From NCBI GenBank assembly GCA_003507445.1, contig DNVR01000019.1, positions 76,395 through 140,394 on the forward strand: a DNA stretch of 64,000 nt. The letters are read 5' to 3'. Under the pieces are notes generated by a model. That model was not told where the DNA came from. It made no database searches and saw only the letters and a program-made list of their open reading frames with translations. Position 1 is the first letter of the stretch. Every line of letters begins with the position of its first letter. Positions 2,843 through 62,356 of the stretch are shown piece after piece. This DNA is from Candidatus Moraniibacteriota bacterium (lineage in GTDB: Bacteria; Patescibacteriota; Minisyncoccia; Moranbacterales; GWC2-37-73). Made by a program: the position numbers and the translations under genes.

Positions 2843-2962
2843 GTCATTCCTGCGGAGGCAGGAATCCAGGATCTTGCAAATCGATAGTAATAATAAAAAT
2901 AAAAGTTATTATTTTGCGAATCGTGTGCTAAATCCTGGATTCCGGACTAAATCCGGAATGAC
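2843..2962. mobile_element. GTCAT...ATGAC palindromic MITE-like element (P1 family), intergenic copy 1
   Basis: Left arm gtcattcctgcggaggcaggaatccaggat, right arm atcctggattccggactaaatccggaatgac. Each arm is itself a hairpin, with an AT-rich core between them. Near-identical arms occur at 15062-15176 and 26871-26985. Confidence 0.6.
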
Positions 2963-3529: not shown

Positions 3530-3622
3530 GGATTCATGTAGCATGTAGCATGTAACATGTAGCATGCAAAAACTGCATTGCATTTTTGTTATATGTTATA
3601 TGTTTTATGTTATATGATTTGT
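3527..3622. repeat. Composite heptamer-repeat cassette E1: (CATGTAGC)n - spacer - (TATGTTA)n, abutting the efp start
   Basis: catgtagcatgtagcatgtaacatgtagcatgc ... tttgttatatgttatatgttttatgttatatga. Near-identical to 4437-4542 and related to 57332-57406, 58868-58958 and 62256-62356. Confidence 0.7.
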
Positions 3623-3956: not shown

Positions 3957-4451
3957 TTAAAATGGCACGTCTTCAAGTCTTACTTCGTCCTGTTCTTCAT
4001 CAAGGTTGATGGTTGGAATTTCTTCAGCCATAGGTGTTTGTTGTTGAGCGGTTGGACGAGGTGTTGCAGCTGCTGCTCCCATTGCCATTGGCGCTGGTCT
4101 TGGTCCTGATGAACCTTGTGCGCGTTGTCCCATTTGCATATTTTCAGCCACGATGTCAGTTGTTTTTCTTTCAACTCCGTCTTTGCCAGTGTAAGAACGT
4201 GTTTCTAATCTTCCCTCAAAATATACTTCTTGCCCTTTGGTTAGATATTGTCCAGCGATTTCAGCTAGACGCCCCCAAATTACAATGTTGTGAAATTCTG
4301 ATTTCTCTTGTTTTTGTCCAGCTTTGTCATTCCAAGTTCGGTTGGTAGCGATACCAACTGTGGTCACGGTTTGACCAGAAGGAGTGGTGCGCAATTCTGG
4401 GTCTCTAGTTAAGCGTCCGATGAGTTGAACTTTGTTAAGATTCATGTTCAT
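3957..4451 (-). CDS. ssb: Single-stranded DNA-binding protein
   Basis: MNMNLNKVQLIGRLTRDPELRTTPSGQTVTTVGIATNRTW...: an OB-fold SSB with a Gly/Pro/Ala-rich linker and an acidic tail ending ...EDVPF. Confidence 0.88.
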   Translation of the reverse strand: MNMNLNKVQLIGRLTRDPELRTTPSGQTVTTVGIATNRTWNDKAGQKQEKSEFHNIVIWGRLAEIAGQYLTKGQEVYFEGRLETRSYTGKDGVERKTTDIVAENMQMGQRAQGSSGPRPAPMAMGAAAATPRPTAQQQTPMAEEIPTINLDEEQDEVRLEDVPF

Positions 4452-4542
4452 GTAGCATGTAGCATGTATCATGTAGCATCAGAAGAAAAAATCTATCTTT
4501 TGCATTTTTGTTACACGTTATATGTTTTATGTTATATGATTT
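4437..4542. repeat. Composite heptamer-repeat cassette E2 (copy of E1), between rpsF and ssb
   Basis: catgtagcatgtagcatgtatcatgtagcatc ... tttgttacacgttatatgttttatgttatatga. The ssb start codon lies inside the CATG-repeat part. Confidence 0.7.
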
Positions 4543-12041: not shown

Positions 12042-14936
12042 ATGCAGGAAGACAAGATAATTATAAAGGGTGCGCGCGAGCACAATTTAAAAAATATTGA
12101 TCTGGAATTGCCTCGGAACAAGTTCATTGTTTTTACGGGTCTTTCGGGCAGTGGAAAATCAACTTTGGCATTTGATACTATTTTTGCTGAAGGGCAAAGA
12201 CGATATCTGGAAAGTTTGTCGAGTTATGCGCGTCAATTTTTGGGACAGATGGATAAGCCAGATGTTGATTATATCCAAGGTCTTTCGCCTGCAATTTCTA
12301 TTGATCAAAAATCAACCTCACACAATCCTCGTTCAACAGTGGGAACGGTAACTGAAATCAATGATTACCTGAGGCTTCTTTTTGCTAAAATTGGCGTTCC
12401 TCATTGCAGTGTTTGTGGGCGTGAAATTTCAAAACTTTCCACCGATGAAATTGTGGATAGAATTTTGGATATGGGCGGAAAAAAGAAATCACAAACAATT
12501 GAAATTTCTTCGCCAATTGTGCGCGAGCGAAAAGGCGAATATTTGGCAATGTTGGATGATATGTGGAAGCGTGGTTATTCAGAGGCGATTGTGGATGGAA
12601 AACTGGAAAGATTGGAAAATTTTAAAGATATAAAATTAGGAAGATATAACAAGCATAGTATCGATATTATTGTTGATACGGTTGTTATTAATGAAGAAAA
12701 TCTTAGTAGGATTTTTGAAGGAGTTGAAAAAGCGCTCAGGCTTTCGCACGGAATTGTAAAAGTGAAATGCGTAAAAGAGTTGAAAGTTGAAAGTAGCAAG
12801 TCGAAAGAAATTGGATGTGTTGAACAGATTTTTAATCAGAATTTGTCTTGTCCGATTCACGATATTGAATTTCCAGAAATGGAGCCGCGCCTTTTTTCTT
12901 TTAATTCTCCTTATGGTGCCTGCGAGGGTTGCGAAGGTCTGGGTATGAAAAAAGAAATTGATCCTGCGCGAGTGATGCCAGATATGAATAAAACTATTGG
13001 CGAAGGAGGGATTATGCCTTGGAGTTTTAAACCTAATAATTATCAAGGAACGGTGCTAAAAGCAGTAGCTCAATATTATAGTATTCCTGACAATAAACGC
13101 TTGCGGGATTTGCCAAAAGATAAGATTGATATTTTGATGTATGGAACTGAGGACGAAGATTTGATAAAAGTTAAATATCATTTTAAAAGTGGCAGCGGTC
13201 ATTATAATGTGCGTTGGAAAGGTGTGGTGGCGTGGCTGCAGGAAAGATATCGCACGACAACCTCAGATGCAGTGCGCACAGACATTGAAAAATATATGTC
13301 GCAAAAACCTTGTTCGACTTGCGGAGGAAGCAGATATAAAAGTGACGTGCTTCTCGTTAGTGTTGGGGGTAAAAATATTTATGAAATTTCGGCGCTTAGT
13401 ATTTGGCAGTGTATCGAATTTTTTAAAAATTTAAAATTAACTGCCCGAGAGGAATTGATTGCTGGCAGAATTTTAAAAGAAATTGTTGCGCGCTTGGTTT
13501 TTCTTAATAACGTTGGTCTGGATTATTTGACTCTTGGGCGAGCAGCGTATTCTCTTTCTGGTGGAGAATCACAGCGCATACGTTTGGCTTCTCAGATTGG
13601 TTCACAACTGGTTGGAGTTTTGTATATTTTAGATGAGCCATCTATTGGTCTTCATGCTCGCGATAATGCAAAACTCATTGAAACATTAAGGCAGTTGCAA
13701 CAAATCGGCAACACATTAATTGTGATTGAACACGATGAAGAAATGATGCGCTCTGCTGACTGGCTGGTTGATATTGGTCCGGGAGCAGGAAAGCACGGCG
13801 GCGAAATTGTGGCGCAAGGATTGCCCGAAGATGTTATTAATAATCCAAAGTCACTTACTGGAAAATACCTTCGAAATGAGCTTGAAATTGAAATTCCAAA
13901 ATTCAGAAGACAAATGAAAAGAAAGAAGAGTATCACAGTGCGAGGAGCTTCTGAGCATAATTTGAAAAATGTGACAGTGGAATTTCCACTTAAAGTTTTC
14001 ACTTGCGTGACTGGAGTTTCTGGATCTGGAAAATCAACATTGGTAGAAGAAACTTTATACAAGGCGTTGGCTAATAAATTGCATCGCGCGCTTGATGTGC
14101 CTGCAAAGCATAATGAAATTATTGGCATTGAAAATATCAACAAGGTTATTATGATTGATCAATCTCCAATTGGGAGAACGCCGCGCTCAAACCCTGCCAC
14201 TTATACTGGTCTTTTTACGCATATTCGCGAGCTGTTTGCGCAAACAAAAGACGCCAAGCTTAGGGGATATGGTCCTGGCAGATTCTCATTTAACGTGGCT
14301 GGCGGGCGCTGCGACAATTGCTCTGGCGAGGGATATCTTAAAATCGAAATGCAGTTTATGCCCGATGTGTATTTGCCGTGCGATGTTTGTAATAGTAAAA
14401 GATATAACAGTGAAACTTTGCAAGTTAAATATAAGGGTAAAAATATTTCAGAGGTGCTGGCGATGACAGTTTCTGAAGGCGTTGAATTTTTTGGCGCACT
14501 TTCAAAAATATACGAACCACTTAAAGTTTTGGAGGAAGTTGGTTTGGGGTATATTGAACTTGGTCAAAGCGCCACCACACTTTCTGGTGGAGAAGCGCAG
14601 CGTATAAAACTTGCCAGCGAACTTTCGCGTCGCGCGACTGGAAATACTTTATATATTTTGGATGAGCCAACCACAGGTCTTCATTTTGATGACATCAAAA
14701 AACTTTTAACAGTGCTCAATCGTCTTGTGGATGCGGGAAACACCGTTGTTGTTATTGAACACAATATGGACGTGATTAAAACTGCAGATTGGATCATCGA
14801 TATGGGACCGGAGGGTGGCGACGGCGGCGGAAAAGTTGTTGTCACTGGTCCACCAGAAGAAGTTATCAAATATCACAAAGAAAGTTATACCGCTAAATAT
14901 TTGCGACAAGTCCTGAAGCCGAAAAGCATACAATAA
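12042..14936 (+). CDS. uvrA: Excinuclease ABC subunit A (copy 1)
   Basis: Two ABC ATPase modules ([10 protein letters not shown] and [10 protein letters not shown]), Zn-finger Cys pairs, LSGGE signatures. 964 aa. Confidence 0.95.
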   Translation: MQEDKIIIKGAREHNLKNIDLELPRNKFIVFTGLSGSGKSTLAFDTIFAEGQRRYLESLSSYARQFLGQMDKPDVDYIQGLSPAISIDQKSTSHNPRSTVGTVTEINDYLRLLFAKIGVPHCSVCGREISKLSTDEIVDRILDMGGKKKSQTIEISSPIVRERKGEYLAMLDDMWKRGYSEAIVDGKLERLENFKDIKLGRYNKHSIDIIVDTVVINEENLSRIFEGVEKALRLSHGIVKVKCVKELKVESSKSKEIGCVEQIFNQNLSCPIHDIEFPEMEPRLFSFNSPYGACEGCEGLGMKKEIDPARVMPDMNKTIGEGGIMPWSFKPNNYQGTVLKAVAQYYSIPDNKRLRDLPKDKIDILMYGTEDEDLIKVKYHFKSGSGHYNVRWKGVVAWLQERYRTTTSDAVRTDIEKYMSQKPCSTCGGSRYKSDVLLVSVGGKNIYEISALSIWQCIEFFKNLKLTAREELIAGRILKEIVARLVFLNNVGLDYLTLGRAAYSLSGGESQRIRLASQIGSQLVGVLYILDEPSIGLHARDNAKLIETLRQLQQIGNTLIVIEHDEEMMRSADWLVDIGPGAGKHGGEIVAQGLPEDVINNPKSLTGKYLRNELEIEIPKFRRQMKRKKSITVRGASEHNLKNVTVEFPLKVFTCVTGVSGSGKSTLVEETLYKALANKLHRALDVPAKHNEIIGIENINKVIMIDQSPIGRTPRSNPATYTGLFTHIRELFAQTKDAKLRGYGPGRFSFNVAGGRCDNCSGEGYLKIEMQFMPDVYLPCDVCNSKRYNSETLQVKYKGKNISEVLAMTVSEGVEFFGALSKIYEPLKVLEEVGLGYIELGQSATTLSGGEAQRIKLASELSRRATGNTLYILDEPTTGLHFDDIKKLLTVLNRLVDAGNTVVVIEHNMDVIKTADWIIDMGPEGGDGGGKVVVTGPPEEVIKYHKESYTAKYLRQVLKPKSIQ

Positions 14937-15061
14937 CTTTCTTCCTTATCTTTCTCTCCTCAGATGAGGAGAGATGTCATGTACTCGTGACAGAGAGGTT
15001 TGAGCATTGCATGACCCACAAATCTACAAATCTGCTACGAATCTACAAATACATCAATCTT

Positions 15062-15176
15062 GTTATTCCGGGCTTGACCCGGAATCTAGGTTTAGCACAT
15101 CATGCTCTATGTTGTAGTTGATTATAATTGGCTAATTAAGTGCTAGATCCTAGATTCCCACCTACGCGGGAATGAC
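15062..15176. mobile_element. GTCAT...ATGAC palindromic MITE-like element (P1 family), intergenic copy 2
   Basis: gttattccgggcttgacccggaatctaggtttagcac ... gtgctagatcctagattcccacctacgcgggaatgac. Upstream is an (ATCTACAA)3 repeat at 15010-15050. Confidence 0.55.
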
Positions 15177-15217
15177 ATAATAAAAAATATAGTTTTTTGG
15201 TGTTGATATTTTGAGAT

Positions 15218-15267
15218 AAAAAAAGAGGACGGAAGTTTTTCTAGCGATGCTAGTAAACTTCCGTCCT
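15218..15267 (-). terminator. Rho-independent terminator for the minus-strand gene 15287-15616
   Basis: 12-bp stem aggacggaagttt...aaacttccgtcct, with a U-run on the minus strand (plus-strand aaaaaaa at 15218-15224). Confidence 0.65.
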
Positions 15268-15286
15268 TGGTACAGTCTGGCAGTGG

Positions 15287-15616
15287 TTATTTTTTTCTGG
15301 GTTCGTGATCAATCCAGAGAAACATGAAACTGCCACGATCGTATGTTTCATGCCATCCAGTTATTTTTAATTCCGGATGTTTTTCCATGAAGGCATTTTT
15401 TATTTCCAGAATTGTTTTTGCAATTTTGAGGTCATCTTGATTGGATAATCCAACTCTTACGCTGTGATCATTATAAAGTGGAATGCTCGTTGTGTTTCCA
15501 ACTGTTATGGCATTCGCCAAGTTTCTTGTTACTGTTGTCCCATACCTTTCAGCGCGGACATCTAATGAAGCAAAAAATATGCTTGCCATTATCAATGTCA
15601 CCAATATTTTTTTCAT
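15287..15616 (-). CDS. Small secreted hypothetical protein
   Basis: 109 aa with signal peptide MKKILVTLIMASIFFASLDVRA. No known domain. Confidence 0.45.
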   Translation of the reverse strand: MKKILVTLIMASIFFASLDVRAERYGTTVTRNLANAITVGNTTSIPLYNDHSVRVGLSNQDDLKIAKTILEIKNAFMEKHPELKITGWHETYDRGSFMFLWIDHEPRKK

Positions 15617-15724
15617 TGTTGTCTCCCAGCCTCTTTTTTGAGGTCTTTGTTTTATTGCCTAAAATAGGCGTTTGATTGTAATATATAATTGTTCAGGTAC
15701 AATAGTATATTATATTCCTAAATT

Positions 15725-17212
15725 ATGAAAAAGTCAAGATTACAGCGGAAAGTAGCTGAGCTGCCTCAAAATCCGGGGGTGTATTTTTTTCGTGATCAAG
15801 AGGGTAAGATTTTATATATTGGCAAGGCGACAAACCTTCGTTCCAGAGTTCAGTCGTATTTTCGCAATGTCATCCCGAACTCGTTTCAGGATCTAGATGA
15901 GCCTAGCGAGATGCTGAAACAAGTTCAGCATGACACAAAGGGATTCTTGAGCGTTCCTGGGCGGAGTGAATGGATTGGGTTGATGGTGGCTCAAGTTGTG
16001 GATATTGATTTTGAGCAGACGGATTCAGTTTTGGAAGCGCTGATTTTGGAAAGCAATTTAATTAAAAAATATCAGCCAAAATATAATACTCTGGAGAAAG
16101 ATGATAAATCATTTTCGTATTTTGTTGTCACTAAAGAAGAATTTCCAAAAGTTTTGATTGTGAGAAAAACAGATTTAGTTTGTCATCCCGCACTTGATGC
16201 GGGTTCCAGTCACACGCACAAATCTGGCTCAGCTCTGGATTCCCGCCTACGCGGGAATGACAAGGCCTCAAAGCCTTGTAAAAAAATACAAAATACCAAA
16301 TACCAGATACCATATACCAAGACCTTCGGTCCTTATACGAGCAAGCAACAAATGCAGACCGCGCTGAAAATTATCCGTCGCATTTTCCCGTTTCATGCTG
16401 GGAAACAAAAAACTGAAAAAGGCTGTTTGGATTTTCAAATCGGTCTTTGTCCTGGGCCGTACGCTGATGCAATTTCAAAAACTGATTATAAAAAAAATAT
16501 TCGAGGGATTGAAATGATTTTGCAGGGGAAGAAAAAAAGCTTGATTTCAAAAATGGAAAAAGAAATGCAAGTTTTTTCCAAAAAAAATGAATTTGAAAAA
16601 GCGGCAGTTCTCCGAAATAAAATTTTTGCATTGCAGCACATTCGCGATGTGGCACTGATGACAAGGGAGATGGAACATGGAGCATGGAACATGGAGCATG
16701 AAATACAAGATACAAAATACCAAATACCAAATACCAGAATCGAGGCTTATGATATCTCCAACATCTCTGGACAATATGCTGTTGGTTCAATGGTGGTTTT
16801 TGAAAATGGTATGCCGAATAAATCGCAGTATCGCAAGTTTAAAATAAAAACTGTTGATGGCAGTAATGATGTGGCGATGATGAAAGAAGTTTTGTCGCGA
16901 AGATTTAATAATGATTGGTCAATGCCAGATTTGATTTTGCTGGATGGCGGACAGGGACACGTTAATATGGCAGGGGATTTGGTGCGCGAATTAGGACTAG
17001 ATTTGTTGATTGTCGGTGTGGCTAAAGGTAAGACGCGTAAAAATCTCAATTTCCAATTTCCAATTTCCAATAAAATCCCAATGTCTCAATTTCCAAAAGA
17101 AATGCAAGAGTTTTTAAATGATAAGAATCTGGTTAAATCTATTATGGATGAGGCTCACCGCTTTGCAATTGCTTATCATCGAAAATTACGCAGTAAAAAC
17201 GCCTTAAAATAA
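15725..17212 (+). CDS. uvrC: Excinuclease ABC subunit C (GIY-YIG, UVR and RNase H-like endonuclease domains, no C-terminal HhH), carrying several in-frame repeat/MITE insertions
   Basis: GVYFFRDQEGKILYIGKATNLRSRVQSYFR (GIY-YIG), EFEKAAVLRNKIFALQ (UVR), and a DISNISGQ...LLDGGQGH endonuclease core. Inserted peptides: SFQDLDEPSEMLKQVQHD, CHPALDAGSS...DSRLRGNDK, NTKYQIPYTK, MEHGAWNMEHEIQDTKYQIPNT and NFQFPISN. Confidence 0.85.
   Translation: MKKSRLQRKVAELPQNPGVYFFRDQEGKILYIGKATNLRSRVQSYFRNVIPNSFQDLDEPSEMLKQVQHDTKGFLSVPGRSEWIGLMVAQVVDIDFEQTDSVLEALILESNLIKKYQPKYNTLEKDDKSFSYFVVTKEEFPKVLIVRKTDLVCHPALDAGSSHTHKSGSALDSRLRGNDKASKPCKKIQNTKYQIPYTKTFGPYTSKQQMQTALKIIRRIFPFHAGKQKTEKGCLDFQIGLCPGPYADAISKTDYKKNIRGIEMILQGKKKSLISKMEKEMQVFSKKNEFEKAAVLRNKIFALQHIRDVALMTREMEHGAWNMEHEIQDTKYQIPNTRIEAYDISNISGQYAVGSMVVFENGMPNKSQYRKFKIKTVDGSNDVAMMKEVLSRRFNNDWSMPDLILLDGGQGHVNMAGDLVRELGLDLLIVGVAKGKTRKNLNFQFPISNKIPMSQFPKEMQEFLNDKNLVKSIMDEAHRFAIAYHRKLRSKNALK
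15869..15934. mobile_element. P2-family palindromic MITE inserted in-frame in uvrC (66 bp)
   Basis: gtcatcccgaactcgtttcaggatctag atgagc ctagcgagatgctgaaacaagttcagcatgac. The same GCTGAAAC/GTTCAGC arms occur twice in the elp3-like gene. Confidence 0.6.
16182..16262. mobile_element. P1-family palindromic MITE inserted in-frame in uvrC (~81 bp)
   Basis: gtcatcccgcacttgatgcgggttccag ... ctggattcccgcctacgcgggaatgaca. Same termini and arms as the intergenic P1 copies. Confidence 0.6.
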
Positions 17213-17746: not shown

Positions 17747-17880
17747 TTAGGACTTACGCATTTTCTCAACTATTTCTTATTTGGCACGCTTTTGGATGAA
17801 TACTCAATATCCAAAAGCTCAAAGAGTTGCTGTCGCCAACTATTGGCCAAAAAAGAAATGTTTCGAAATGTGTAACTTCT
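17747..17880 (+). promoter_or_regulatory. ~135-bp leader/operator region, copy 1 (upstream of the HMA-domain permease), containing an 11-bp perfect inverted repeat GCTTTTGGATA/TATCCAAAAGC
   Basis: About 93% identical by eye to 19428-19555. Also contains the GTTTCGAAAC and TTGGCCAA palindromes. Confidence 0.55.
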
Positions 17881-17892
17881 TACTTATATAAT

Positions 17893-19413
17893 ATGCAAAA
17901 AATAACAGTTCCAATCATTGGAATGCATTGCAAATCTTGTGAAATTCTTGTTGAAAATAAGCTTTCTGAAATCAGCAAGATCAAAAAAATAGACGTCAAT
18001 TGTAAGAAAGGAACAGCTGATATTTATTACGAATCTCAAAAACCCAATATGGTGGAAATAGAAAAAGCCATCAGGGAAGCGGGTTATGCGGTTGGAGTGG
18101 CAGAAAAAAAACCGTTGTTCAGTCGGAATATAAATGAATATAAAGATTTGGGGATCGCCTTTTTGTTTCTGTTTGGTATTTATTTGATTGCAAAAAATTT
18201 AGGGCTAGCTGACATTGGAGTAAGTTCCGCATCAAATCCATCGAGCTTGGGCGTGGTTTTCTTGGTGGGGATTACGGCTGGGATTTCAACTTGTATGGCG
18301 TTGGTGGGAGGTTTAATTTTGGGAATTTCTGCTCGTCATTCTGAGAAACATCCTGAGGCTACTGCCGCGCAAAAGTTTCGTCCGCATTTATTTTTCAATG
18401 CCGGCAGGATTGTGATTTACGCCTTGTTGGGTGGACTGCTTGGTTTGATCGGTTCTTCATTTCAATTGTCGGGAGTGACTTTGGGAATTCTGACAATTGC
18501 AGTAGGAGTTGTGATGTTGTCACTTGGACTAAAATTGATTGGAATTTTTCCTCGTTTGGAAAATGGTGGAATAGCTTTGCCGAAAAGCATCAGCAGTGCG
18601 TTGGGCATTCACCCTGTTAAATCCTGCGAAGCAGGTGCTCGCAGTAGCGAGCAATTTAACAGGGTAAAAAATAATACCAAAGAATATAGTCATAAAAATT
18701 CATTCGTTATGGGTGGACTGACATTTTTCTTGCCCTGTGGCTTCACGCAAGCGATGCAACTTTATGCTGTGAGCAGTGGAAGTTTCACTCAGGGTGCAAT
18801 GATTATGGGTATTTTTGCACTTGGAACAGCTCCTGGACTCTTGGGTATTGGCGGTCTGGCTAGTGTGGTGCGCGGAATTTTTGCTCAAAGATTTTTTAAG
18901 TTCGCTGGAATCCTCGTGATATTTTTGGCGATGTTTAATATTGCCAATGGATATAATCTGACTGGCTGGCAAGTGTCGAAAGTTGAAAGTCGAAAGTTGA
19001 AAGTTGAAAGTGTGATTGATCCTAATGTGACAATGGAAAACGGCGTGCAGGTTGTTAGAATGAAGGAAATTGCCAGTGGATATTCTCCGAACAAATTCAC
19101 AATCAAAAAAGACGTGCCAGTGAAATGGATTATTGATGCTCAGGCTCCGTATTCTTGTGCCAGCAGTCTTGTGGTTTCAAGTTTGAAAATTCAAAAAACT
19201 TTAAAGGCAGGCGAAAACATTATTGAATTTACACCAACAAAAACAGGTAAAATCCCATTTTCTTGTTCTATGGGTATGTATACTGGCGCATTCACAGTTA
19301 TTGATGAAAATAGTGATGAGGTGGTGGTTGAAGACGACCTGGTTGAAAAGCAGGCTTCTGGTGGAATATGCAATAAGCAAGGATGTAATATAAATAAAGA
19401 TCGAATTAAATAA
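17893..19413 (+). CDS. HMA-domain membrane protein (N-terminal MxCxxC metal-binding domain, multi-TM permease-like domain with conserved Cys, C-terminal cupredoxin-like domain)
   Basis: GMHCKSCE heavy-metal-associated motif, several TM helices (FLVGITAGISTCMALVGG and FFLPCGFTQAM), and a C-terminal beta domain with conserved Cys. An in-frame (GAAAGTT)n repeat lies at 18975-19012. Confidence 0.6.
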   Translation: MQKITVPIIGMHCKSCEILVENKLSEISKIKKIDVNCKKGTADIYYESQKPNMVEIEKAIREAGYAVGVAEKKPLFSRNINEYKDLGIAFLFLFGIYLIAKNLGLADIGVSSASNPSSLGVVFLVGITAGISTCMALVGGLILGISARHSEKHPEATAAQKFRPHLFFNAGRIVIYALLGGLLGLIGSSFQLSGVTLGILTIAVGVVMLSLGLKLIGIFPRLENGGIALPKSISSALGIHPVKSCEAGARSSEQFNRVKNNTKEYSHKNSFVMGGLTFFLPCGFTQAMQLYAVSSGSFTQGAMIMGIFALGTAPGLLGIGGLASVVRGIFAQRFFKFAGILVIFLAMFNIANGYNLTGWQVSKVESRKLKVESVIDPNVTMENGVQVVRMKEIASGYSPNKFTIKKDVPVKWIIDAQAPYSCASSLVVSSLKIQKTLKAGENIIEFTPTKTGKIPFSCSMGMYTGAFTVIDENSDEVVVEDDLVEKQASGGICNKQGCNINKDRIK

Positions 19414-24067: not shown

Positions 24068-26860
24068 ATGGCTTCCAAAAAAGAAACTTCGAAACAAACA
24101 AATGAGATTGTAATCAAGGGTGCGCGAGTTAATAATCTCAAAAACATCGACGTTAACATCCCGAGGGATAAGTTCGTGGTGATTACGGGACTTTCTGGCT
24201 CGGGTAAATCATCGCTGGCTTTTGACACGATTTATGCCGAAGGTAATCGTCGATATATGGAAGGCCTTTCTTCGTATGCGCGAAATTTTTTGGATCCATC
24301 AGATAAGCCTGACGTGGATAAAATTGAAAATCTTTCCCCTCCAATTTCTATTGATCAAAAAAGCATTTCTCGTTCTCCGCGATCAACTGTTGGAACACTG
24401 ACTGAGGTTTATGATTATTTGCGTATTATGTATGCAAAAATCGGAGTGCTGCATTGCCCGGAGTGTGGGACATCAATGCAAAAAAGAAGCAATCAGGAAA
24501 TTTTGGATGAAATTTTAACATTTTCTCATCACACTCAGATTGCTATTTTGGCAAAGCCGAAGGATATTGCTGTTGGAAAAGAATTATTAAAACACATTGC
24601 GCAAATGGGCTATGCTCGTGTGCGTTTTAATGGAAAAATGTTTACGGTAGCGGAAGCTATGATGCTCAGCGAAAGTGAAATTGAAACTGATATTGAAATG
24701 GTTATTGATAGAATTGTGCTCGACAAGAAAAAACCTGATGTGGAAAGAATGTTAGACTCTATTGAAACAGCGATGAAAAACGGTGGCAATTCAATGAAGA
24801 TCTTGTTTGATAATGTTGAAGAACGTAATTATAACCAAGATTTCTTTTGCAGCGAATGCGGTGTGAAAATCAAAGAAGTGACGCCGCGTCATTTTTCTTT
24901 TAATAGTCCAGAGGGTGCTTGCGACCTGTGCTCCGGTTTAGGTTACACCTTAAAAGTAAATGAAGAACTTATTATTCCCAATAAAAATCTTTCTTTAATG
25001 GAAGGTGCAATTCAGCCCTGGAGCAAATCTGGTGGAAAAATAAGTGGACAGAGTGTGCAACTTTTGACGCTTAAAGATGTTGCAAAAAAATATAAGTTTT
25101 CAATGAACGTTCCGGTTAAAAAATTAACAGCTGATCAACTCAAAATTGTTTTACATGGTAATGATGGATTTGAAGGTGTAATTCCGGCATTAGAAAAAAA
25201 ATATCAAGAAACAAAATCTGATTATGTGCGCAGTGAAATTGAAAAATATATGACCGCACACACTTGTCCATCTTGCGATGGCAAGCGTCTTAAAAAAGAA
25301 TTTTTGGCGGTGGAAGTTCAAGGAAAAACAATAGATGTGATGGTCTCAATGAGTATAACTCATCTGAGAGAATTTTTTGAGAATGTTGAAAATTGGACAC
25401 AAACAACACAAGAGAAAAGCATAGGCAAACCTATTGTGCGAGAAATTTTGCAGCGTCTTAGTGCACTTGAAAACGTGGGATTGGAATATTTAAATTTGGG
25501 ACGATCAGCTCAAACAATTTCTGGTGGGGAAGCTCAACGTATCAGACTGGCTGCGCAACTCAATTCTCAATTGATGGGAATTGTATATGTTTTGGATGAA
25601 CCTTCCATCGGACTTCATTCTCGCGACACAGAAAAACTTATTAATACTATTAAAGCCTTGCAAAACGTTGGAAATTCATTGATTGTGGTTGAACACGATG
25701 AAAGCATCATTAAAGCTGCTGACTGGATTGTTGATATGGGTCCAGGGGCAGGAGAAGAAGGCGGAATCGTCGTTTTTGAAGGTGATTATAATCAACTTAT
25801 TAAATCTAAAAATCTTACTGCACAATATATATCTAAAAAGAAAAAGGTTTCAGAAAAGAAAAAAAATAGAGCTGGAAACGGTAAATTTATTGAAATTATC
25901 GGAGCTGAAGAAAATAATTTAAAAAATGTTGATATAAAAATACCATTGGAAAAATTTGTGGTTATTTGTGGAGTTTCAGGCAGTGGAAAATCAACTTTGG
26001 TAAAAAATATTTTAGCCAAAGCATTGTCGCGACATTTTTATAACACACGAGATCTTCCTGGTAAACACAAAAAAATCAAAGGATTTGAGCATATTAAAAA
26101 GGTTATTAGTATAAATCAAAATCCAATCGGACGCACTCCACGCTCAAATGCAGCAACGTATACTGGAGTGTTCTCACACATTCGCGACCTGTTTGCTGGA
26201 GTGGAGGAAGCAAAGAACAGAAATTATACTGCTAGTCGCTTTAGTTTTAATATGAAAGGTGGGCGCTGTGAAGTGTGCCAAGGGGAAGGCTCAAAGAAAA
26301 TAGAAATGCATCTGCTTCCTGATATGTATGTGAAATGCGAAGCTTGCGGAGGAACGAGGTTTAGCAAAAAAACCTTAGAGATTGAATATAAAGGCTTTAA
26401 TGTTGCACAGATTTTGGATATGGATGTGCGCTTGGCTCTGCGTTTTTTTGCAAGGCATCCGCTTATTGCTGAAAAACTTAAAACCATGGAAGATGTTGGT
26501 CTTGGATATTTGAAGCTCGGACAAAGTGCAACAAATCTTTCTGGTGGAGAAGCTCAGCGTATTAAACTTGCCACGGAGCTTGCACGAAAATCAACAGGCA
26601 GCACTTTGTATATTTTGGATGAGCCAACTGCAGGACTTCATTTTGATGATATCAGAAAATTGTTAAGCGTTCTTAATGCCTTGGTTGATAAAGGTAATAC
26701 AGTGATTGTGGTTGAACATAATCTTGATGTTGTTCGTGATGCTGATTGGGTGATTGAACTTGGACCGGATGGTGGCGACCTTGGTGGTTATCTCACTTTT
26801 GCTGGCACACCAGATCAACTTAAAAAAGACAAGAAAAGTTGGACCGCGAAATATTTGTAG
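24068..26860 (+). CDS. uvrA: Excinuclease ABC subunit A paralog (copy 2, full length)
   Basis: [34 protein letters not shown]... Has two ABC modules and Zn-finger Cys pairs. 930 aa; the domain order matches copy 1. Confidence 0.9.
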
Positions 26861-26870
26861 AGATGTCTGT

Positions 26871-26985
26871 GTCATTCCGGACTTGATCCGGAATCCAGGA
26901 TTTAACGCACTATTTTTTCTATTATAATATTCGTAATTTAATACTTGAGATATTAATCCTGGATTCCTGCCTACGCAGGAATGAC
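26871..26985. mobile_element. GTCAT...ATGAC palindromic MITE-like element (P1 family), intergenic copy 3
   Basis: gtcattccggacttgatccggaatccaggatttaacgcac ... atcctggattcctgcctacgcaggaatgac. Confidence 0.6.
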
Positions 26986-27001
26986 AAAGAAAAAAGTAAA
27001 G

Positions 27002-27464: not shown

Positions 27465-27600
27465 GTAAGAATTTCTAATGTCTAATTTCTAATATCTAAT
27501 AAAAAATTTAATGACAAAATGTCCAAAAGTTTCGTGCATTAGGAATTGGAAATTGATTAGAAATTGGTAATTAGGAATTAGAAATTAAAGATAAATTTAG
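27465..27600. repeat. Hairpin-forming (TTAGAAAT / AATTTCC)n repeat module in the divergent promoter region
   Basis: aatttctaatgtctaatttctaatatctaat ... attaggaattggaaattgattagaaattggtaattaggaattagaaatt (inverted halves). Confidence 0.55.
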
Positions 27601-30156: not shown

Positions 30157-30245
30157 ATAACTAATAACAAACAACTAACTACTAACAACAAGGGCTTAAC
30201 AAAGCATTTCTGTTATAAGTTGTAAGTAGTAAGTTGTCAGTTAAT
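30157..30245. repeat. Long imperfect hairpin built from ACAACTA / TAGTTGT repeat units (argS-glycosyltransferase spacer)
   Basis: caactaactactaacaac at 30167-30184 is inverted as gttgtaagtagtaagttg at 30225-30242. Confidence 0.55.
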
Positions 30246-35874: not shown

Positions 35875-36000
35875 TCAAATTTCCAATTTCAAATTTCCAA
35901 TTTCCAATAAAATCATAATGACTAAATTTTAAATGACCAAACTTGAGTTCATAATTGAAAATTTAATGAGAATTGAGAACTGAAAATTGAAAATTATGGA
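35875..36000. repeat. Hairpin-forming (AATTTCC)n / (GAAAATT)n repeat module
   Basis: aaatttccaatttcaaatttccaatttccaat ... ttgaaaatttaatgagaattgagaactgaaaattgaaaatt. Confidence 0.55.
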
Positions 36001-55235: not shown

Positions 55236-55625
55236 TTAGATAACCTTAAAGTGTTTTAGGGTTGGGATGATGTTGGGTGCAAGATTTTCTGGAAGGTTAT
55301 TGAGATCTAGCCATGCGTATTCATGGACTTGTTCGTGTGGAATTATTTTTCCTGTAAAGTTAGCAAGGAAATGCACAAGGACGACATCGAAAATTTCGCC
55401 ATCCTTTTCTTTTGTTGTGTGAAACAAAAAAGGTTCAGTATTTGTGATTTTTATATTAATTCCCATTTCTTCATATGCTTCTCGAGTCGCAGTTTCAATA
55501 AGATTTTCATTTTCTTCAACTATGCCGCCACAGAATTTCCAAAAGGTATCTTTACCTGAAATGTTTAGAAGTACTTTATTATTTTCGACAATAACTGGTC
55601 CTGATGCGATAATTATTTTGTTCAT
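55236..55625 (-). CDS. NUDIX hydrolase
   Basis: GGIVEENENLIETATREAYEEMGI is a Nudix box. Confidence 0.8.
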   Translation of the reverse strand: MNKIIIASGPVIVENNKVLLNISGKDTFWKFCGGIVEENENLIETATREAYEEMGINIKITNTEPFLFHTTKEKDGEIFDVVLVHFLANFTGKIIPHEQVHEYAWLDLNNLPENLAPNIIPTLKHFKVI

Positions 55626-57331
55626 ATTTTTTTAACTAAATAAGTTTGACTTAGTTTGTATCCTTGTTTTCTGTAGTATCCTCTCACTCCCACTCCTGAA
55701 ATTACTACAATTTTTTTGAGGTCGTATTCTTCTTTGGCAATTCTTTCAGCTTCTAATAATAATTTTTTGCCAAGGCCGATGTGTTGTGGGGAAGTTGAAT
55801 CTAGCGTGTCTATTTTTGTTAGTTTTCCGTAAGTGTGAACTTCTCTAATGATGGCTGCATTTTTTAGAACTGGAAGCATATCATGAAGTTTGTCATGCTG
55901 AACTTGTTTCAGCATCTCGTTTGGCATATTGACTTTGCTGGATCCTGAAACAAGTTCAGCATGACACGTTGAACTTGGGATGCGTAGACGCAATAATGCA
56001 AACAATTTTTTCTTGTCCGGTGAAACATATTGCAGAAATATTTCCTTGCCGTCTGAGGCAGCATAATCAATGCGATCTAAAACAATTTTTTCTTTTACAA
56101 TATATCCTGCACCAACTTCACGACAACGAATGCAAGGACAATTGGACTTAGGAATAATAATTTGTCTAAGATTGGAAACTGTCGGACCGGCCACAATGGA
56201 TGGAGTAGGAACATCGCGAATAAGGCGAGCAATGCGCACATATGGCGTGATTGCTTCGTTTTTTATCTTCACTACAAGCCTCTCAAACGCTTGATTTGTC
56301 AGTGGGACATACTTTTTCTTCTTCCAGATGTCATACAGCTCACTGTTTTTTAAAACGACTGTAGGGTATATCTTGAGCATATCAGGTTGAAATCTGGGAC
56401 CTTCAAAAAGGGCCTTAAACATCTCAAAATCGCGTTTTGGGGTGCTTCCCGGAAGTCCCGGCATCATATGATAGTTTATCTTAAAACCACTATCCTTGAG
56501 CATTTTGGTAGCATCTATGGTGCTTTGGATGAGGTGTCCACGCTTGTTTAATTCGAGTACATCATCATAAAGACTTTGCACACCAAGTTCAACTCTCGTG
56601 CAACCAAGTTGACGAAAGTTCAAAATTTCTTTTTCATCAATATAATCCGGCCGCGTCTCCAAAGTGAGCCCAATAATTCTATGTTTCGCTTTTTCGTTTC
56701 TCTTTTGCTCGCGCAGTAGTTTGTCATGCTGAACTTGTTTCAGCATCTCGCCAAGCTGTTTGGCACTTCTGGATCCTGAAATGAATTCAGGATGACAACG
56801 CGGATAATCGTTGGCAGCCTTAAAGCACCCGTAAATAAATTTTTTCTGATACGCCTTTGGCAGAAAAGAAAATGTTCCACCCATCACAATTAATTCAATT
56901 TTATCTGTGCGATGACCGTTGAGCTCCAATGAGCGCAAGCGGTTTTGAACTTGTCTATATGGATCAAACTGAGAATCAATTGCGCGCATCACAGCTGGTT
57001 CATTGGAGAGATAACTCTTAGGCATATCTTTCTCACTAGGACAATAAATGCATTTACCGGGGCAGGGATATGACTTGGTAAGCACTGCCACCACAGCCAC
57101 ACCGGATTGGGTGCGAATCAAGCGACTCATCAAGGCTTCTTCAAATTTTTCACTGCGTTTGATTTTCTTTTGCTCAACTAATTTATTATATCTATCTCGC
57201 AAATCAGCATTGGTAGGCATTGCAACTCCGAATTTTTTACAAAGACTTTTTTTGAGTTTGCCAAAATCTCCCTGATTTTCAGAAAGTTCGTTTATTGCGG
57301 AGATTATATAATTGTCGTAAGATTGGCTCAT
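55622..57331 (-). CDS. Elp3-like radical SAM/GNAT protein (tRNA wobble-uridine modification family) carrying two in-frame P2-MITE insertions
   Basis: CPGKCIYCP radical-SAM cluster and C-terminal GNAT motifs (HIGLGKKLLLEAERIA). Insertion peptides ...EMLKQVQHDKLL... and ...TCHAELVSGSS...EMLKQVQHDKLHDM... Start moved to 57331 out of the repeat. Confidence 0.75.
   Translation of the reverse strand: MSQSYDNYIISAINELSENQGDFGKLKKSLCKKFGVAMPTNADLRDRYNKLVEQKKIKRSEKFEEALMSRLIRTQSGVAVVAVLTKSYPCPGKCIYCPSEKDMPKSYLSNEPAVMRAIDSQFDPYRQVQNRLRSLELNGHRTDKIELIVMGGTFSFLPKAYQKKFIYGCFKAANDYPRCHPEFISGSRSAKQLGEMLKQVQHDKLLREQKRNEKAKHRIIGLTLETRPDYIDEKEILNFRQLGCTRVELGVQSLYDDVLELNKRGHLIQSTIDATKMLKDSGFKINYHMMPGLPGSTPKRDFEMFKALFEGPRFQPDMLKIYPTVVLKNSELYDIWKKKKYVPLTNQAFERLVVKIKNEAITPYVRIARLIRDVPTPSIVAGPTVSNLRQIIIPKSNCPCIRCREVGAGYIVKEKIVLDRIDYAASDGKEIFLQYVSPDKKKLFALLRLRIPSSTCHAELVSGSSKVNMPNEMLKQVQHDKLHDMLPVLKNAAIIREVHTYGKLTKIDTLDSTSPQHIGLGKKLLLEAERIAKEEYDLKKIVVISGVGVRGYYRKQGYKLSQTYLVKKI
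55892..55966. mobile_element. P2-family palindromic MITE inserted in-frame in the elp3-like gene (copy 1)
   Basis: gtcatgctgaacttgtttcagcatctcg ... gatcctgaaacaagttcagcatgac. Confidence 0.6.
56723..56797. mobile_element. P2-family palindromic MITE inserted in-frame in the elp3-like gene (copy 2)
   Basis: gtcatgctgaacttgtttcagcatctcg ... gatcctgaaatgaattcaggatgac. Confidence 0.6.
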
Positions 57332-57406
57332 GAAACATGAAACATGTAGCATGTAACAAAAAAGCTTTTTAATTCAGATTTGTTATATGTTGTATGTTAT
57401 ATGATA
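57332..57406. repeat. Composite heptamer-repeat cassette E3 in the divergent elp3/methyltransferase promoter region
   Basis: catgaaacatgaaacatgtagcatgtaac ... tttgttatatgttgtatgttatatgatatatg. Confidence 0.65.
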
Positions 57407-57407
57407 T

Positions 57408-58106
57408 ATGAAAATTGAAACTGCTAATAAAATTTTACAGGAGACTGAGCTGGGTTACGATCTGATTTCTAAGAAATTTTCCGAGACCCGGAAGCATTTT
57501 TGGCGTGGGCTGGAGTTCATAAAGGATTATACGCACAGCGGCGATAATGTTTTGGATTATGGCTGTGGCAATGGCCGCCTTTTGGAATTGTTGGCTGATA
57601 AAAATATAAATTATCAGGGAGTTGATGTTTCCCAGAAGCTCGTTGACCTTGCCAAAAGCAAATATACTGGAGAAAATATTGAGTTTTCCAAAATAAGCTC
57701 CAGTCAAATTAGCTTAGCATTTGAGACGGGATTTTTCAATACCGTTTATAGCATTGCGGTTTTTCATCATTTTCCTTCAAAAAAATATCGCGAGGATGTG
57801 GCAAGAGAACTTTATGAAAAAACAAAAGACGGTGGGTATATTGTGGTAACGGTTTGGTTTCTTTGGCAAAAAAAATATTTGAAAAATATTTTACAAAATT
57901 GGATTAATAAAATAAAAGGGAATAGCGCATTGGATTGGAATGATTGTTCAATTTCTTTTACGGATAACTCTGGAGCGCGGGTTGAAAGATTTCACCATGC
58001 CTTCACAAAGAGAGAACTGAAAAAACTTTTTGAACTAGTGGGGTTTAAAACAGAAAAATGTGAAGTTGTTGATGGAAGAAATATTTTGTACATAGGAAAA
58101 AAATAG
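57408..58106 (+). CDS. Class I SAM-dependent methyltransferase
   Basis: VLDYGCGNGRL is methyltransferase motif I. Confidence 0.75.
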   Translation: MKIETANKILQETELGYDLISKKFSETRKHFWRGLEFIKDYTHSGDNVLDYGCGNGRLLELLADKNINYQGVDVSQKLVDLAKSKYTGENIEFSKISSSQISLAFETGFFNTVYSIAVFHHFPSKKYREDVARELYEKTKDGGYIVVTVWFLWQKKYLKNILQNWINKIKGNSALDWNDCSISFTDNSGARVERFHHAFTKRELKKLFELVGFKTEKCEVVDGRNILYIGKK

Positions 58107-58867: not shown

Positions 58868-58958
58868 CAGACGTATAACATAAAATATAAAACATGGAGC
58901 ATGGAACATGGAGCAAGAATTTTTGATCCAATGATCTATGCTGTATGATCCATGATTC
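58868..58958. repeat. Composite heptamer-repeat cassette E4 upstream of trxB
   Basis: gtataacataaaatataaaacatggagcatggaacatggagc ... atgatctatgctgtatgatccatgattcatg, abutting the trxB ATG. Confidence 0.65.
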
Positions 58959-59876
58959 ATGATTTACGATTTAGCGATAATTGGCAGTGGACCTGCGGGG
59001 CTTTCGGCTTCGGTGTATGCTTCACGTTATGGAATTTCCAATGTGGTGATTGGTGGAATTTCAGGGGGGCTCACAACGCAAACTCATGAGATTGGAAACT
59101 GGCTTGGAACTGAAAAGATTAGTGGTTTTGATTTTGCACAAAAAGCTGAAGCGCATTGCAAAAGTTATGACAAAGCCGAAGTCGTTAATACTTTGGTTGA
59201 TGAAATTACTGAAAATGAAAACGGATACATTTTGTTTTTGAGTAATGGAAGTAAAGTTGAAGCAAAAACAATTTTGTTAGCGATGGGAACCAAGCATCGA
59301 CACTTGGGCGTGCCTGGGGAAAAAGAATTTGCTGGCAAAGGTGTTTCATATTGCGCAACTTGTGATGGATTTTTTTATCGCGGAAAAACCGTGGCAGTGG
59401 TTGGCGGAAATGATAGTGCTGCAGGCGCCGCTGTGTATTTGGGAGATATTGCTGAAAAAGTTTATTTGATTTATCGCGGGGAAAAACTTAGATGCGAAAC
59501 TTTTTGGGGAGAGTCAATCGGGAAAAATCCAAAAATAGAAAGTATTTTTATGACAAACATCAAAGAAATTAAGGGCGAGCAGAAAGTGGAAGAATTAATT
59601 TTGGACAGTCCATATAAAAATAGTGAAACATTGAAAGTTGATGGTGTATTTGCTGAAATTGGTAGTGATCCAAATACTGAATTGATAAAAAATTTGGAAG
59701 TCGAGTTGGATGAGCAAGGTTATGTGAAGATAGATACTTCTGGTAGAACCAGTAAGAAAGGTGTTTGGGCAGCAGGGGACATCACAACTGGCTCCGATAA
59801 GTTTAAACAAATTATTACTGCCGCCGCCGAAGGCGCAGTCGCTGCACATAGTATTCAAGAATTTTTGAAAAAATAA
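58959..59876 (+). CDS. trxB: Thioredoxin-disulfide reductase
   Basis: DLAIIGSGPAG (FAD-binding), CATCDG redox-active disulfide, and GGGNSA (NADPH-binding). Confidence 0.92.
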   Translation: MIYDLAIIGSGPAGLSASVYASRYGISNVVIGGISGGLTTQTHEIGNWLGTEKISGFDFAQKAEAHCKSYDKAEVVNTLVDEITENENGYILFLSNGSKVEAKTILLAMGTKHRHLGVPGEKEFAGKGVSYCATCDGFFYRGKTVAVVGGNDSAAGAAVYLGDIAEKVYLIYRGEKLRCETFWGESIGKNPKIESIFMTNIKEIKGEQKVEELILDSPYKNSETLKVDGVFAEIGSDPNTELIKNLEVELDEQGYVKIDTSGRTSKKGVWAAGDITTGSDKFKQIITAAAEGAVAAHSIQEFLKK

Positions 59877-60467: not shown

Positions 60468-60543
60468 GGGCCGGTAGCTCACCTGGTAGAGCGCCTCACT
60501 TGCACTGAGGAGGTAGCGGGTTCAAGTCCTGTCCGGTCCACCA
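60468..60543 (+). tRNA. tRNA-Ala (anticodon TGC), CCA encoded
   Basis: GGGCCGGTAGCTCACCTGGTAGAGCGCCTCACTTGCACTGAGGAGGTAGCGGGTTCAAGTCCTGTCCGGTCCACCA. Cloverleaf folds with the G3:U70 alanine identity pair. Confidence 0.9.
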
Positions 60544-60620
60544 AACTAACTAACAACTCACAACTAGCAACTAACAACGTTCATTTGTTGATAGTTGTAT
60601 GTTATCAGTTATAAGTTATT
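60544..60620. repeat. Hairpin-forming ACAACT / AGTTGT repeat module between the two tRNAs
   Basis: caactcacaactagcaactaacaacg ... gttgatagttgtatgttatcagttataagtt (inverted halves). Confidence 0.5.
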
Positions 60621-60622
60621 TT

Positions 60623-60696
60623 GGGCTTATAGCTCAGCTGGTTAGAGCGCGTCACTGATAATGACGAGGTCTCAAGTTCGAATCTTGATAAGCCCA
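60623..60696 (+). tRNA. tRNA-Ile (anticodon GAT)
   Basis: GGGCTTATAGCTCAGCTGGTTAGAGCGCGTCACTGATAATGACGAGGTCTCAAGTTCGAATCTTGATAAGCCCA. Good cloverleaf; no encoded CCA. Confidence 0.9.
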
Positions 60697-61143: not shown

Positions 61144-61357
61144 TCTTTGTTGTTTCAATGTATTTTGACCCGTCGATGGTGGCGGGTCTTTAATTTGACA
61201 AAAAACCGCAGATAATGTACACTTTAAATAAAGAAAGCCCCAGGGGCTTTTTAAAAAACCTTAAAATCATATAGCATATAGCATATAGCATATAGCAAAA
61301 ATACCAATAAAGTTGCTGTTTGCCTAAAATTGTTACATGTTACATGTTACATGTTAA

Positions 61358-62255: not shown

Positions 62256-62356
62256 TCATATAACATACAACATAGAACATAGAACAAGGGAATTCAGTAC
62301 TGCACGCTTCTGGCATATCTGCTCCATGTTCCATGCTCCATGTTCCATGAAGCATT
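62256..62356. repeat. Composite heptamer-repeat cassette E5 upstream of rplK
   Basis: catataacatacaacatagaacatagaaca ... ctccatgttccatgctccatgttccatgaagcatt, directly before the rplK ATG. Confidence 0.65.

Follow-up and report, generated by a model that had tools for sequence, protein, structure and literature searches.

Background

Several described repeat systems bear on the locus reported here, the uvrC gene at 15725..17212 (+) of a 64,000-nucleotide stretch (hereafter, the window) of contig DNVR01000019.1 from a Candidatus Moraniibacteriota bacterium, which is read through six short repeat elements of two classes, palindromes and arrays of 7-nt units. Rickettsia palindromic elements (RPEs) are dispersed palindromes that lie in frame in unrelated housekeeping genes, to which they add fold-compatible peptide segments (Ogata et al. 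2000, reviewed in PMC10969869). In Neisseria, the NTS/dRS3 hairpin repeat (here NTS; 28-nt consensus CGTCATTCCCGCGMAVGCGGGAATCYRG), for which a degenerate Ssn-related motif (SRM) has also been defined, is cut as single-stranded DNA by SsnA, a GIY-YIG nuclease of 94 aa that likewise cuts the SRM, and the motif typically stands on either side of genes of the ssn family, e.g., NTS-ssnA-NTS (PMC11893778). SRM repeats are abundant in host-associated bacteria, with Rickettsia among the SRM-rich genomes; Ssn is a demonstrated nuclease, whereas a role resembling that of an insertion sequence (IS) is raised as a hypothesis, and the main text of that report makes no mention of Patescibacteria (PMC11893778). 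Heptamer repeats are known from Xanthomonas, (GGGAATC)n, and from Nostoc, (GGGGAYT)n, with a mode of four units, convergent pairs and 89–93% of the arrays in intergenic DNA; heptameric simple sequence repeats (SSRs) are over-represented in many bacteria, and polymerase slippage has been proposed as their cause (PMC4692102). A literature search for the Candidate Phyla Radiation (CPR; Patescibacteria) in combination with miniature transposable elements with inverted repeats (MITEs) or heptamer repeats found no report.

The uvrC gene is intact

Our analysis makes it probable that this uvrC is a working gene colonised at four tolerant sites by two unrelated repeat classes, the palindromes being derived from SRM hairpins and the arrays belonging to dispersed families. 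A first-pass annotation, made from the letters alone, had listed five in-frame elements in uvrC. All five stretches were recovered at their positions, but one of them, 16666-16738, consists of two arrays, which gives six elements in all. Its interpretation as an in-frame invasion in the style of RPEs is partly supported and on the whole correct: it is apt as to the outcome, and has to be refined in that the palindromes and the heptamer arrays are two distinct classes, that there are six elements, and that one segment is old and shared.

The open reading frame (ORF) comprises 495 codons and, as had been claimed, every segment keeps the frame. The 495-aa product was identified as UvrC by TIGR00194 (331.8 bits, cutoff 285), and its Pfam matches are GIY-YIG (residues 17-50), UVR (271-305) and UvrC_RNaseH (335-482). 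The gene has the GIY-YIG, UvrC_M, UVR and RNase H-like domains and lacks the C-terminal (HhH)2. The names of its homologs assign the protein to Candidatus Moranbacteria (CPR/Patescibacteria). For comparison, the protein was aligned with 16, later 116, orthologs (117 sequences in all), and codon-level alignment was done with 5, later 19, orthologs for which DNA had been fetched; further orthologs came from a metagenome scan with the UvrC alignment as query. A contig scan with the single UvrC protein was seeded on insert-derived words, and the matches listed included only distant UvrCs of ≤41% identity. Residues Y20, Y31, R41, E104, D343, D407 and H478 are invariant across the 117 sequences; we take them to be of catalytic type from a structure alignment with T. 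maritima UvrC and from what is known of that enzyme. The protein has the C-terminal motif DEAHRFA...HRK, which can be aligned with solved structures.

Were uvrC a pseudogene in decay, or an artefact of assembly, the inserts would be mere damage, and two observations fit such a reading: a near-identical contig (L001, described below) encodes a UvrC truncated inside segment 5, and the window protein is without the (HhH)2 of classical UvrC. Against this stand the 495 open codons, the invariant catalytic residues and the aligned C-terminal motif; moreover, all CPR orthologs seen lack (HhH)2 and share the same end point, and more than 100 orthologs keep their frame through comparable inserts. We therefore consider decay or artefact very improbable, and the frameshifted pseudogene that the first-pass annotation had named as a possible refutation is not what the ORF and the 117 orthologs reveal. 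As a separate observation, UvrC of this lineage stops directly after the RNase H-like domain, without the (HhH)2 DNA-binding domain, and the other fetched CPR UvrCs are likewise short, about 390–450 aa.

Insertion sites in UvrC

Length variation in the UvrC family is restricted to four sites among the 117 orthologs, while control segments are constant in length in 104 of the 117. Site S1 follows helix 1 of the GIY-YIG domain (range 4–86 aa, empty at 4–6 aa), S2/3 precedes GPYTSK (10–80 aa, empty at 10–17 aa), S4 is the linker between UVR and the RNase H-like domain (14–83 aa, empty at 14–19 aa) and S5 follows VAKG (29–92 aa, empty at 26–31 aa). The least-filled orthologs measure 411–424 aa, the shortest with DNA being 411 aa. 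A given site holds different elements in different orthologs, and a given family is found at different sites: the E1 family occupies S1 in the window and S2 in ortholog L004, an E2-type peptide lies at S5 of ortholog P0083, and ‘NTKYQIP’ arrays were found at S3, S4 and S5. Comparable inserts keep the frame in more than 100 UvrC orthologs. Fitch parsimony on a neighbour-joining tree of the 117 UvrC cores gave observed/permuted ratios of 0.60–1.02 for element traits. Held-out ordinary residues themselves give 0.72 on this tree, the resolution of which is too poor to yield a number of independent gains, and element traits carry no more phylogenetic signal on it than ordinary residues do.

Segment 1 (15869..15934, 66 nt, residues 49-70) is an E1-type miniature palindrome, TGTCAT-hairpin...hairpin-ATGACA, in which the GTCAT...ATGAC palindrome encodes VIPNSFQDLDEPSEMLKQVQHD. 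Within the GIY-YIG domain it occupies the loop that follows helix 1, where the predicted local distance difference test (pLDDT) score is 53–56. The segment is missing in 69 of the 117 orthologs (4–6 aa at the site), including the closest ones of 78–80% identity, and 4 of the 5 orthologs aligned by codon have nothing at the site; an additional 12 nt on its 3′ side, to 15946, are also missing in the empty orthologs. Family copies lie at 55892-55965 and 56723-56796 of the window and at site 2 of L004. Segment 2 (16182..16262, 81 nt, residues 153-180) is an E2-type miniature palindrome encoding CHPALDAGSS...DSRLRGNDK, and its right terminus, 16235-16262 (-), is the NTS/SRM hairpin TGTCATTCCCGCGTAGGCGGGAATCCAG; pLDDT is below 50 at residues 154-183. 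Segments 2 and 3 share the loop that spans 10–17 aa in empty orthologs.

Segment 3 is a heptamer array, (AAATACC)n, at 16281..16320 (+), detected as 5.3 units at 16284-16320 and encoding residues 186-199, KKIQNTKYQIPYTK. It amounts to a net gain of 10 codons (30 nt) over L004-L006, which are empty there, and at the same position and phase L002 carries (AAATTGG)n and L007 a degenerate array. Segment 4 combines two arrays in the linker between UVR and the RNase H-like domain, 4a, (ATGGAAC/ATGGAGC)n at 16666..16700 (+), scored as 5.1 units of GGAGCAT/GGAACAT, and 4b, a second (AAATACC)n array of 5.1 units at 16701..16736 (+) that is 96% identical to segment 3 over 27 nt. In intergenic DNA, the hairpins at 58893 and 62320-62349 have 5′ arms of the 4a family. 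The S4 linker has a pLDDT below 50 at residues 311-330. Of five close orthologs compared, four (L002, L005, L006 and L007) hold a heptamer array of about 30 nt in it, with differing units such as (GAATTAG)n or (TCATCAG)n. Judged from these close orthologs, segment 4 is a product of turnover within an array-derived linker rather than of a simple insertion.

In the AlphaFold2 model built on the 117-sequence alignment, pLDDT is 35–56 across segments 1–4, which are thus predicted to sit in low-confidence or disordered loops and linkers. The expectation that ortholog alignments would reveal insertions at loop positions was borne out for segments 1–3; in segment 4 it met linker turnover, and segment 5 is shared and structured.

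Net insert lengths in uvrC are multiples of three, and the encoded peptides include SFQDLDEPSEMLK, NTKYQIPYTK, EMEHGAWNMEHEIQDTK and NLNFQFPISNK. The inserts are probably translated as extra loop peptides that have been filtered by selection, because in-gene arrays are stop-free or carry variants at would-be stops. An intron- or intein-like removal of the elements after transcription or translation would leave the mature UvrC unaltered, and strong mRNA hairpins are indeed predicted over site 1 and over sites 2/3 (free energies of −31 to −42). Removal, however, would need neither lengths in multiples of three nor stop-free units nor stop-avoiding variants, all of which were observed; Rfam shows no intron or ribozyme, intein motifs are absent and the inserts measure just 10–27 aa, which leaves removal the least credible of the alternatives weighed here.

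Segment 5 is an old indel absorbed into the fold

Segment 5 (17047..17096, +) encodes LNFQFPISNKIPMSQFP and consists of a perfect (CAATTTC) array of 3.6 units at 17047-17071 followed by the tail AATAAAATC, an array element of about 30 nt ending at 17077, after which come CCAATGTCT and a further CAATTTCC repeat at 17086-17096. Its peptide class occurs in 38 of the 117 orthologs and its length in 44, and it aligns with native structure of solved UvrC; in the AlphaFold2 model it has a pLDDT of 73–84, with a beta strand. The alternative that the segments are conserved native UvrC sequence, named by the first-pass annotation as a refutation, therefore applies in part, to this segment. The segment is common to L002, L005 and L007, whereas L004 is short by exactly 10 codons; it is thus still an array indel, though an old and shared one that has been absorbed into the UvrC fold.

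The DNA of segment 5 is unusually well conserved. Its codons are 89–95% identical among the window, L002 and L007 (17–18 of 19), whereas in the rest of uvrC same-residue codons agree in about 55% of cases (P about 2e-4 to 2e-3), and it has been kept either by a constraint at the nucleotide level or by conversion with other copies of the family. Such synonymous conservation would be expected if the inserts were functional adaptations, for example recombination or phase-variation switches or DNA- or RNA-level signals that are kept in repair genes. The gain or loss of one 7-nt unit would shift the frame, and it is precisely at this array that a contig of the same population breaks off. Conversion with family copies would produce the same conservation, however, and several features of the arrays are at odds with a switch: they also lie in the essential ArgRS, IleRS, TGT and RlmN genes, where switching off would be lethal, they have no more than about five units, their units and occupancy vary freely among orthologs, and they are strongly depleted in genes. 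Phase-variable contingency repeats are long arrays, variable in copy number from strain to strain, that turn genes on and off, typically those for surface or virulence functions. Short arrays of up to about five units in essential housekeeping genes do not look like these, and we regard an adaptive role as improbable.

The contig in question, ena:ERZ27254744:k141_291110 (L001), is 100% identical to window positions 12725-17077, with all arrays up to that point. Just past (CAATTTC)3CAATAAAATC it enters an unrelated locus (CCA-adding enzyme, FBPase), which cuts its UvrC to 453 aa; the breakpoint region is 17040-17100 in the window and 4316-4400 in L001. The switch reflects either a rearrangement in the population or an assembly chimera.

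Palindromes resemble SRM hairpin pairs

All seven palindrome copies in the window end in TGTCAT...ATGACA and have a small stem-loop of their own on each arm. The three intergenic copies measure 115–120 bp and are full-length SRM-pair elements, located at 2843..2962 (120 bp), 15062..15176 (115 bp, without a gene, in the uvrA-uvrC spacer) and 26871..26985 (115 bp). The four genic copies measure 66–81 bp and are all in frame; they comprise segments 1 and 2 of uvrC and two E1-type palindromes of 74 nt each (55892..55965 and 56723..56796) inside a radical-SAM (ELP3-like) ORF at 55622-57352 (-) with the domains Radical_SAM and Radical_SAM_C. The first-pass annotation was right in placing the same families at 2843, 15062 and 26871 and within the elp3-like gene, where there are two copies. 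The pattern of the palindrome termini matches twice in the window, compared with 0.06 expected.

We replaced a loose grammar of ‘GTYAT + hairpin’, which is non-specific (45 matches in shuffles), with the published SRM pattern. In its strict form, this pattern matches once in the window, at 16235-16262, as against 0.07 in 100 dinucleotide shuffles, and this terminus (minus strand) is identical to the NTS consensus at 26 of 28 positions. The termini at 15150-15177, 2842-2869 and 26959-26986 have 3–4 mismatches to NTS, and the E1-type termini of segment 1 and the radical-SAM copies fall outside the strict pattern.

In all three of L096, L170 and L171, the last two being Moranbacteria-type homologs, a 97-aa single-domain GIY-YIG ORF lies between inverted TGTCAT hairpins; in L096, whose UvrC is 60% identical to that of the window, a complete unit of the SRM-ssn-SRM type (1954-2402) sits in the uvrA-uvrC spacer, the spacer that in the window holds the 115-bp element without a gene (15062-15176). 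Pfam GIY-YIG covers the full length of the 97-aa protein (3e-16), and its residues Y9, Y20 and E67 have the same spacing as Y6, Y17 and E64 of SsnA. Its nearest solved structures are UPF0213 proteins (E = 5e-5), and the family is widespread in CPR (Moranbacteria and other lineages) and beyond. Since the same inverted termini bracket this gene in relatives, we read the palindromes of 66–120 bp as SRM (NTS-like) hairpin pairs, that is, miniature, gene-less, MITE-like derivatives of SRM-ssn-SRM units.

The likeness to the described system thus includes the oriented 28-nt hairpin, (C/T)GTCAT-stem-loop-stem-ATCYRG, with one window terminus at 26/28 to NTS, and the inverted copies around a GIY-YIG gene of about 95 aa in relatives, as in NTS-ssnA-NTS (PMC11893778). 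It differs in the CPR host, in the compact inverted pairs of 66–120 bp without a gene, in the in-frame location of four of the seven window copies within ORFs, and in the E1-type termini, which share only the grammar. In the mechanism that we propose, each palindrome end, an oriented hairpin of the form TGTCAT-stem-loop-stem-ATC(C/T)AG, would be an SRM, the motif that Ssn binds and cuts, and the palindromes would be spread or processed in trans via single-stranded hairpin intermediates; Ssn would, on this scheme, mobilise them.

Several findings weigh against this reading. Only one of the 14 termini fits the strict SRM pattern, and for the E1-type the agreement extends just to the grammar. The activity demonstrated for Ssn is that of a nuclease, not of a transposase, and its IS-like role is a hypothesis (PMC11893778). 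The 64-kb window has no ssn-type ORF, and no transposase, integrase or reverse transcriptase was found in it either. Target-site duplications are not visible at any of the seven copies, all of which are flanked by T and A that merely extend the palindrome. The term MITE, as applied by the first-pass annotation, is accordingly a partial fit: terminal inverted repeats (TIRs) are present in 7/7 copies and a gene-carrying long form with the same ends exists in L096, L170 and L171, but there is no target-site duplication. Most copies escape a strict screen for TIR identity, since an element's two terminal hairpins are not alike. With Rfam at the gathering threshold, two tRNAs were the only hits in the window, and no known RNA family explains either element class.

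Compared with RPEs, the palindromes are similarly dispersed and in frame, and in uvrC they occupy surface-compatible positions, namely loops of low pLDDT. RPEs are about 100–150 bp long (PMC10969869), whereas the genic copies here have 66–81 bp, and the host belongs to another phylum. The comparison is apt in terms of outcome; it concerns what the elements do to genes and not their sequences. As Rickettsia is among the SRM-rich genomes (PMC11893778), RPEs and the palindromes described here may be linked.

The motif was also seen outside cellular loci. In IMG/VR, 17 viral contigs with GC contents of 39–63% carry an exact copy of the 25-nt SRM terminus found in the uvrC element, and on two of them (L175 11721-12039 and L187 6123-6441) an inverted SRM pair surrounds an ORF of about 85 aa that is not GIY-YIG. 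The motif is conserved over very distant hosts and is able to flank cargo. Palindromes of other kinds were noted as well. An in-frame palindrome of 57 nt from another family (CCCTGTTAAAT...ATTTAACAGGG, peptide HPVKSCEAGARSSEQFNRV) lies at 18610-18666 in ORF 17827-19413, an HMA/DsbD_2/cupredoxin protein whose L002 ortholog is without it, and a peptide related to HPVKSCEAGARSSEQFNRV was found at UvrC site 5 of ortholog P0046. UvrA of L002 carries a 45-nt in-frame palindrome, PASTRGNDRSSTRGR, which the window is without.

Heptamer arrays as probable dispersed families

A stringent scan of the window detected 18 arrays of period 7, compared with 0 in 20 shuffles and 0–1 for periods 5, 6 and 8–11. 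In 885 kb of fetched loci there were 40 period-7 arrays, as against 0–2 for other periods; all 40 belong to UvrC loci of CPR (Patescibacteria-type) origin, and the Bacteroidota and other distant loci L038-L087 contained none. The units number in the dozens and are AT-rich without G-tracts (AATTTCC, AAATACC, CATGTAG, TGTTATA and others). The lengths of perfect runs are bimodal with a mode of 30–33 nt, beyond which no run extends; the copies in uvrC have 31–40 nt.

Arrays are 15-fold denser in intergenic DNA (2.98 per kb) than in genes (0.20 per kb). The intergenic ones are complementary inverted pairs that fold into long, G.U-rich hairpins with arms of about 30 bp (z-scores to −9.5), whereas genic arrays are solo arms. 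Hairpins of this kind lie at 1334-1409, 3535-3616, 4449-4538, 27470-27587, 30159-30242, 35875-35995, 57329-57410, 58893-58963, 60548-60619, 61264-61360 and 62257-62349, and their arms group into three superfamilies, CATGNAR/YGTTATA, CAACTNA/TNAGTTG and AATTTCY/RGAAATT. On account of the G.U pairs, their stability is strand-asymmetric, up to three-fold; the hairpin at 3535-3616 has −36.5 kcal/mol on one strand and −13.3 on the other. A general role of these hairpins as terminators or mRNA elements was considered and rejected, as the stable strand is independent of gene direction: efp, ssb and rpsF are minus-strand genes, whereas it is the plus strand that forms the strong hairpins at 3535 and 4449.

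About 30% of the arrays lie in housekeeping genes, in frame. Arrays or palindromes in frame were found in UvrA, the HMA/DsbD protein, a P-type ATPase, ArgRS, IleRS, TGT, RlmN and the radical-SAM protein, in addition to UvrC, and would-be in-frame stops are avoided by variants such as GTCGAAAG in place of GTTGAAAG or GAATTCG in place of GAATTAG. Thus arrays are rarer in genes, stop-free and located in loops, and the genic remainder would be the subset that has survived purifying selection, as the genic elements in general would be; the shorter length of genic palindromes (66–81 nt) relative to intergenic ones (115–120 nt) fits such a filter.

The main competitor of dispersal is slippage in place, by which the heptamer segments would be native low-complexity linkers, nothing would be mobile and similar units would arise by convergence, being AT-rich and stop-free. 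Heptameric SSRs are over-represented in many bacteria with slippage as the proposed cause (PMC4692102), and AATTTCC has no stop on either strand, so that selection alone would enrich it in genes. At site 3, the arrays of the window, L002 and L007 agree in position and phase but not in unit, and site 4 has arrays of about 30 nt with differing units in L002, L005, L006 and L007; these fit turnover in situ as well as they fit replacement. The net gain of segment 5 over some orthologs, just 3–6 aa, also counts against our main reading. Open-ended slippage, however, would not be expected to yield perfect arrays that peak at 30–33 nt with none longer, nor ortholog indels of whole 10-codon (30-nt) units, nor intergenic arrays in complementary inverted pairs, and the palindromes are beyond its reach. 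The non-repeat tail AAACAAA(TC)/AATAAAATC is furthermore common to (AATTTCC)n copies across loci, orientations and distant genomes, which argues for dispersed families over independent slippage. On balance, slippage of native linkers strikes us as unlikely, though it is the best placed of the alternatives considered. For the dispersed families, we suggest that arrays would pass from one locus to another as whole blocks of about 30 nt, by copying or conversion, and that slippage would make their units uniform.

A bolder extension can be offered only tentatively, and we think it rather doubtful: the arrays of about 30 nt might be distinct, very small propagating elements of CPR, written or copied at fixed length by a dedicated machinery that acts on single strands, and kept homogeneous even in genes; together with the Ssn-hairpin elements and the nested palindromes of 21 nt described below, they would be a major source of the additional loops and the length variation in CPR housekeeping proteins. 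A single-strand-acting machinery would explain the G.U-asymmetric hairpins, and the synonymous-site conservation of segment 5 is the reason to suppose homogeneity of the DNA within genes.

The repeats of Xanthomonas and Nostoc share with these arrays the 7-nt unit, a mode of about four units, frequent convergent inverted pairs and a mostly intergenic location (PMC4692102). They differ in having one G-rich unit, against dozens of AT-rich units without G-quadruplex potential here; Xanthomonas arrays also reach 26 units (PMC4692102), whereas the present ones are capped near 33 nt, with about 30% of genic, in-frame arrays and strand-asymmetric G.U hairpins. The Xanthomonas unit GGGAATC (PMC4692102) is identical to the 3′ stem and tail of the NTS hairpin, GCGGGAATC (PMC11893778). 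This identity is perhaps a hint that heptamer arrays and motifs of the Ssn type are linked; the CPR units reported here have no such identity.

Nested within heptamer arrays of UvrC orthologs, a 21-nt palindrome, CCTGCCTRCCGGYAGGCAGG, was observed at L168 1867-1887 and L169 606-626, and also at L132 1755-1774; the copies lie at different sites in opposite orientations and add 7 aa (LPAGRQG / LPTGRQV). The window itself has no copy of this palindrome. Cyanobacterial STRR repeats are also dispersed repeats with 7-nt units. In Nostoc, small dispersed repeats, palindromes of 21–27 nt, are reported by Elhai et al. (Genome Res, 2008) to occur in heptamer arrays and in genes with the frame kept; CCTGCCTRCCGGYAGGCAGG in the arrays of L168 and L169 behaves alike.

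Significance and genomic context

Repeat elements lengthen and reshape essential proteins in this Moranbacteria lineage, and the uvrC locus provides a concrete source for some of the odd insertions and length variation known in CPR/Patescibacteria proteins. Two tiny kinds of repeat DNA enter essential genes (UvrA, UvrC, aminoacyl-tRNA synthetases, TGT and RlmN) again and again, at the same permissive loops. If the palindromes are what we read them as, the recently described Ssn/SRM hairpin system extends to CPR, and the RPE-like behaviour of gene-less SRM pairs suggests that in-frame selfish DNA has a common basis among host-associated bacteria whose genomes are small. With their fixed length of about 30 nt, their shared tails and their synonymous conservation, the heptamer arrays offer a tractable way into the question why bacteria have an excess of 7-nt repeats. 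In practical terms, metagenome assemblies are broken or wrongly joined at these repeats, as may be the case in L001, and homology searches are seeded spuriously by them.

The window has a GC content of 37%, and its gene content is housekeeping only: recA, efp, ssb, rpsF, uvrB, uvrA, uvrC and a second uvrA paralog, together with ArgRS, IleRS, LeuRS, recO, TGT, RlmN, nusG and others. The distance from uvrA (12042-14936) to the second UvrA paralog (930 aa, 24068-26860), which is located downstream, is 9 kb, and over 1.4 kb the two are about 65% identical in nucleotides; in L006 a second paralog is likewise arranged, directly after uvrC. Between two tRNA genes of the window (60468-60540 and 60623-60696) there is nothing but a heptamer hairpin pair (60548-60619).

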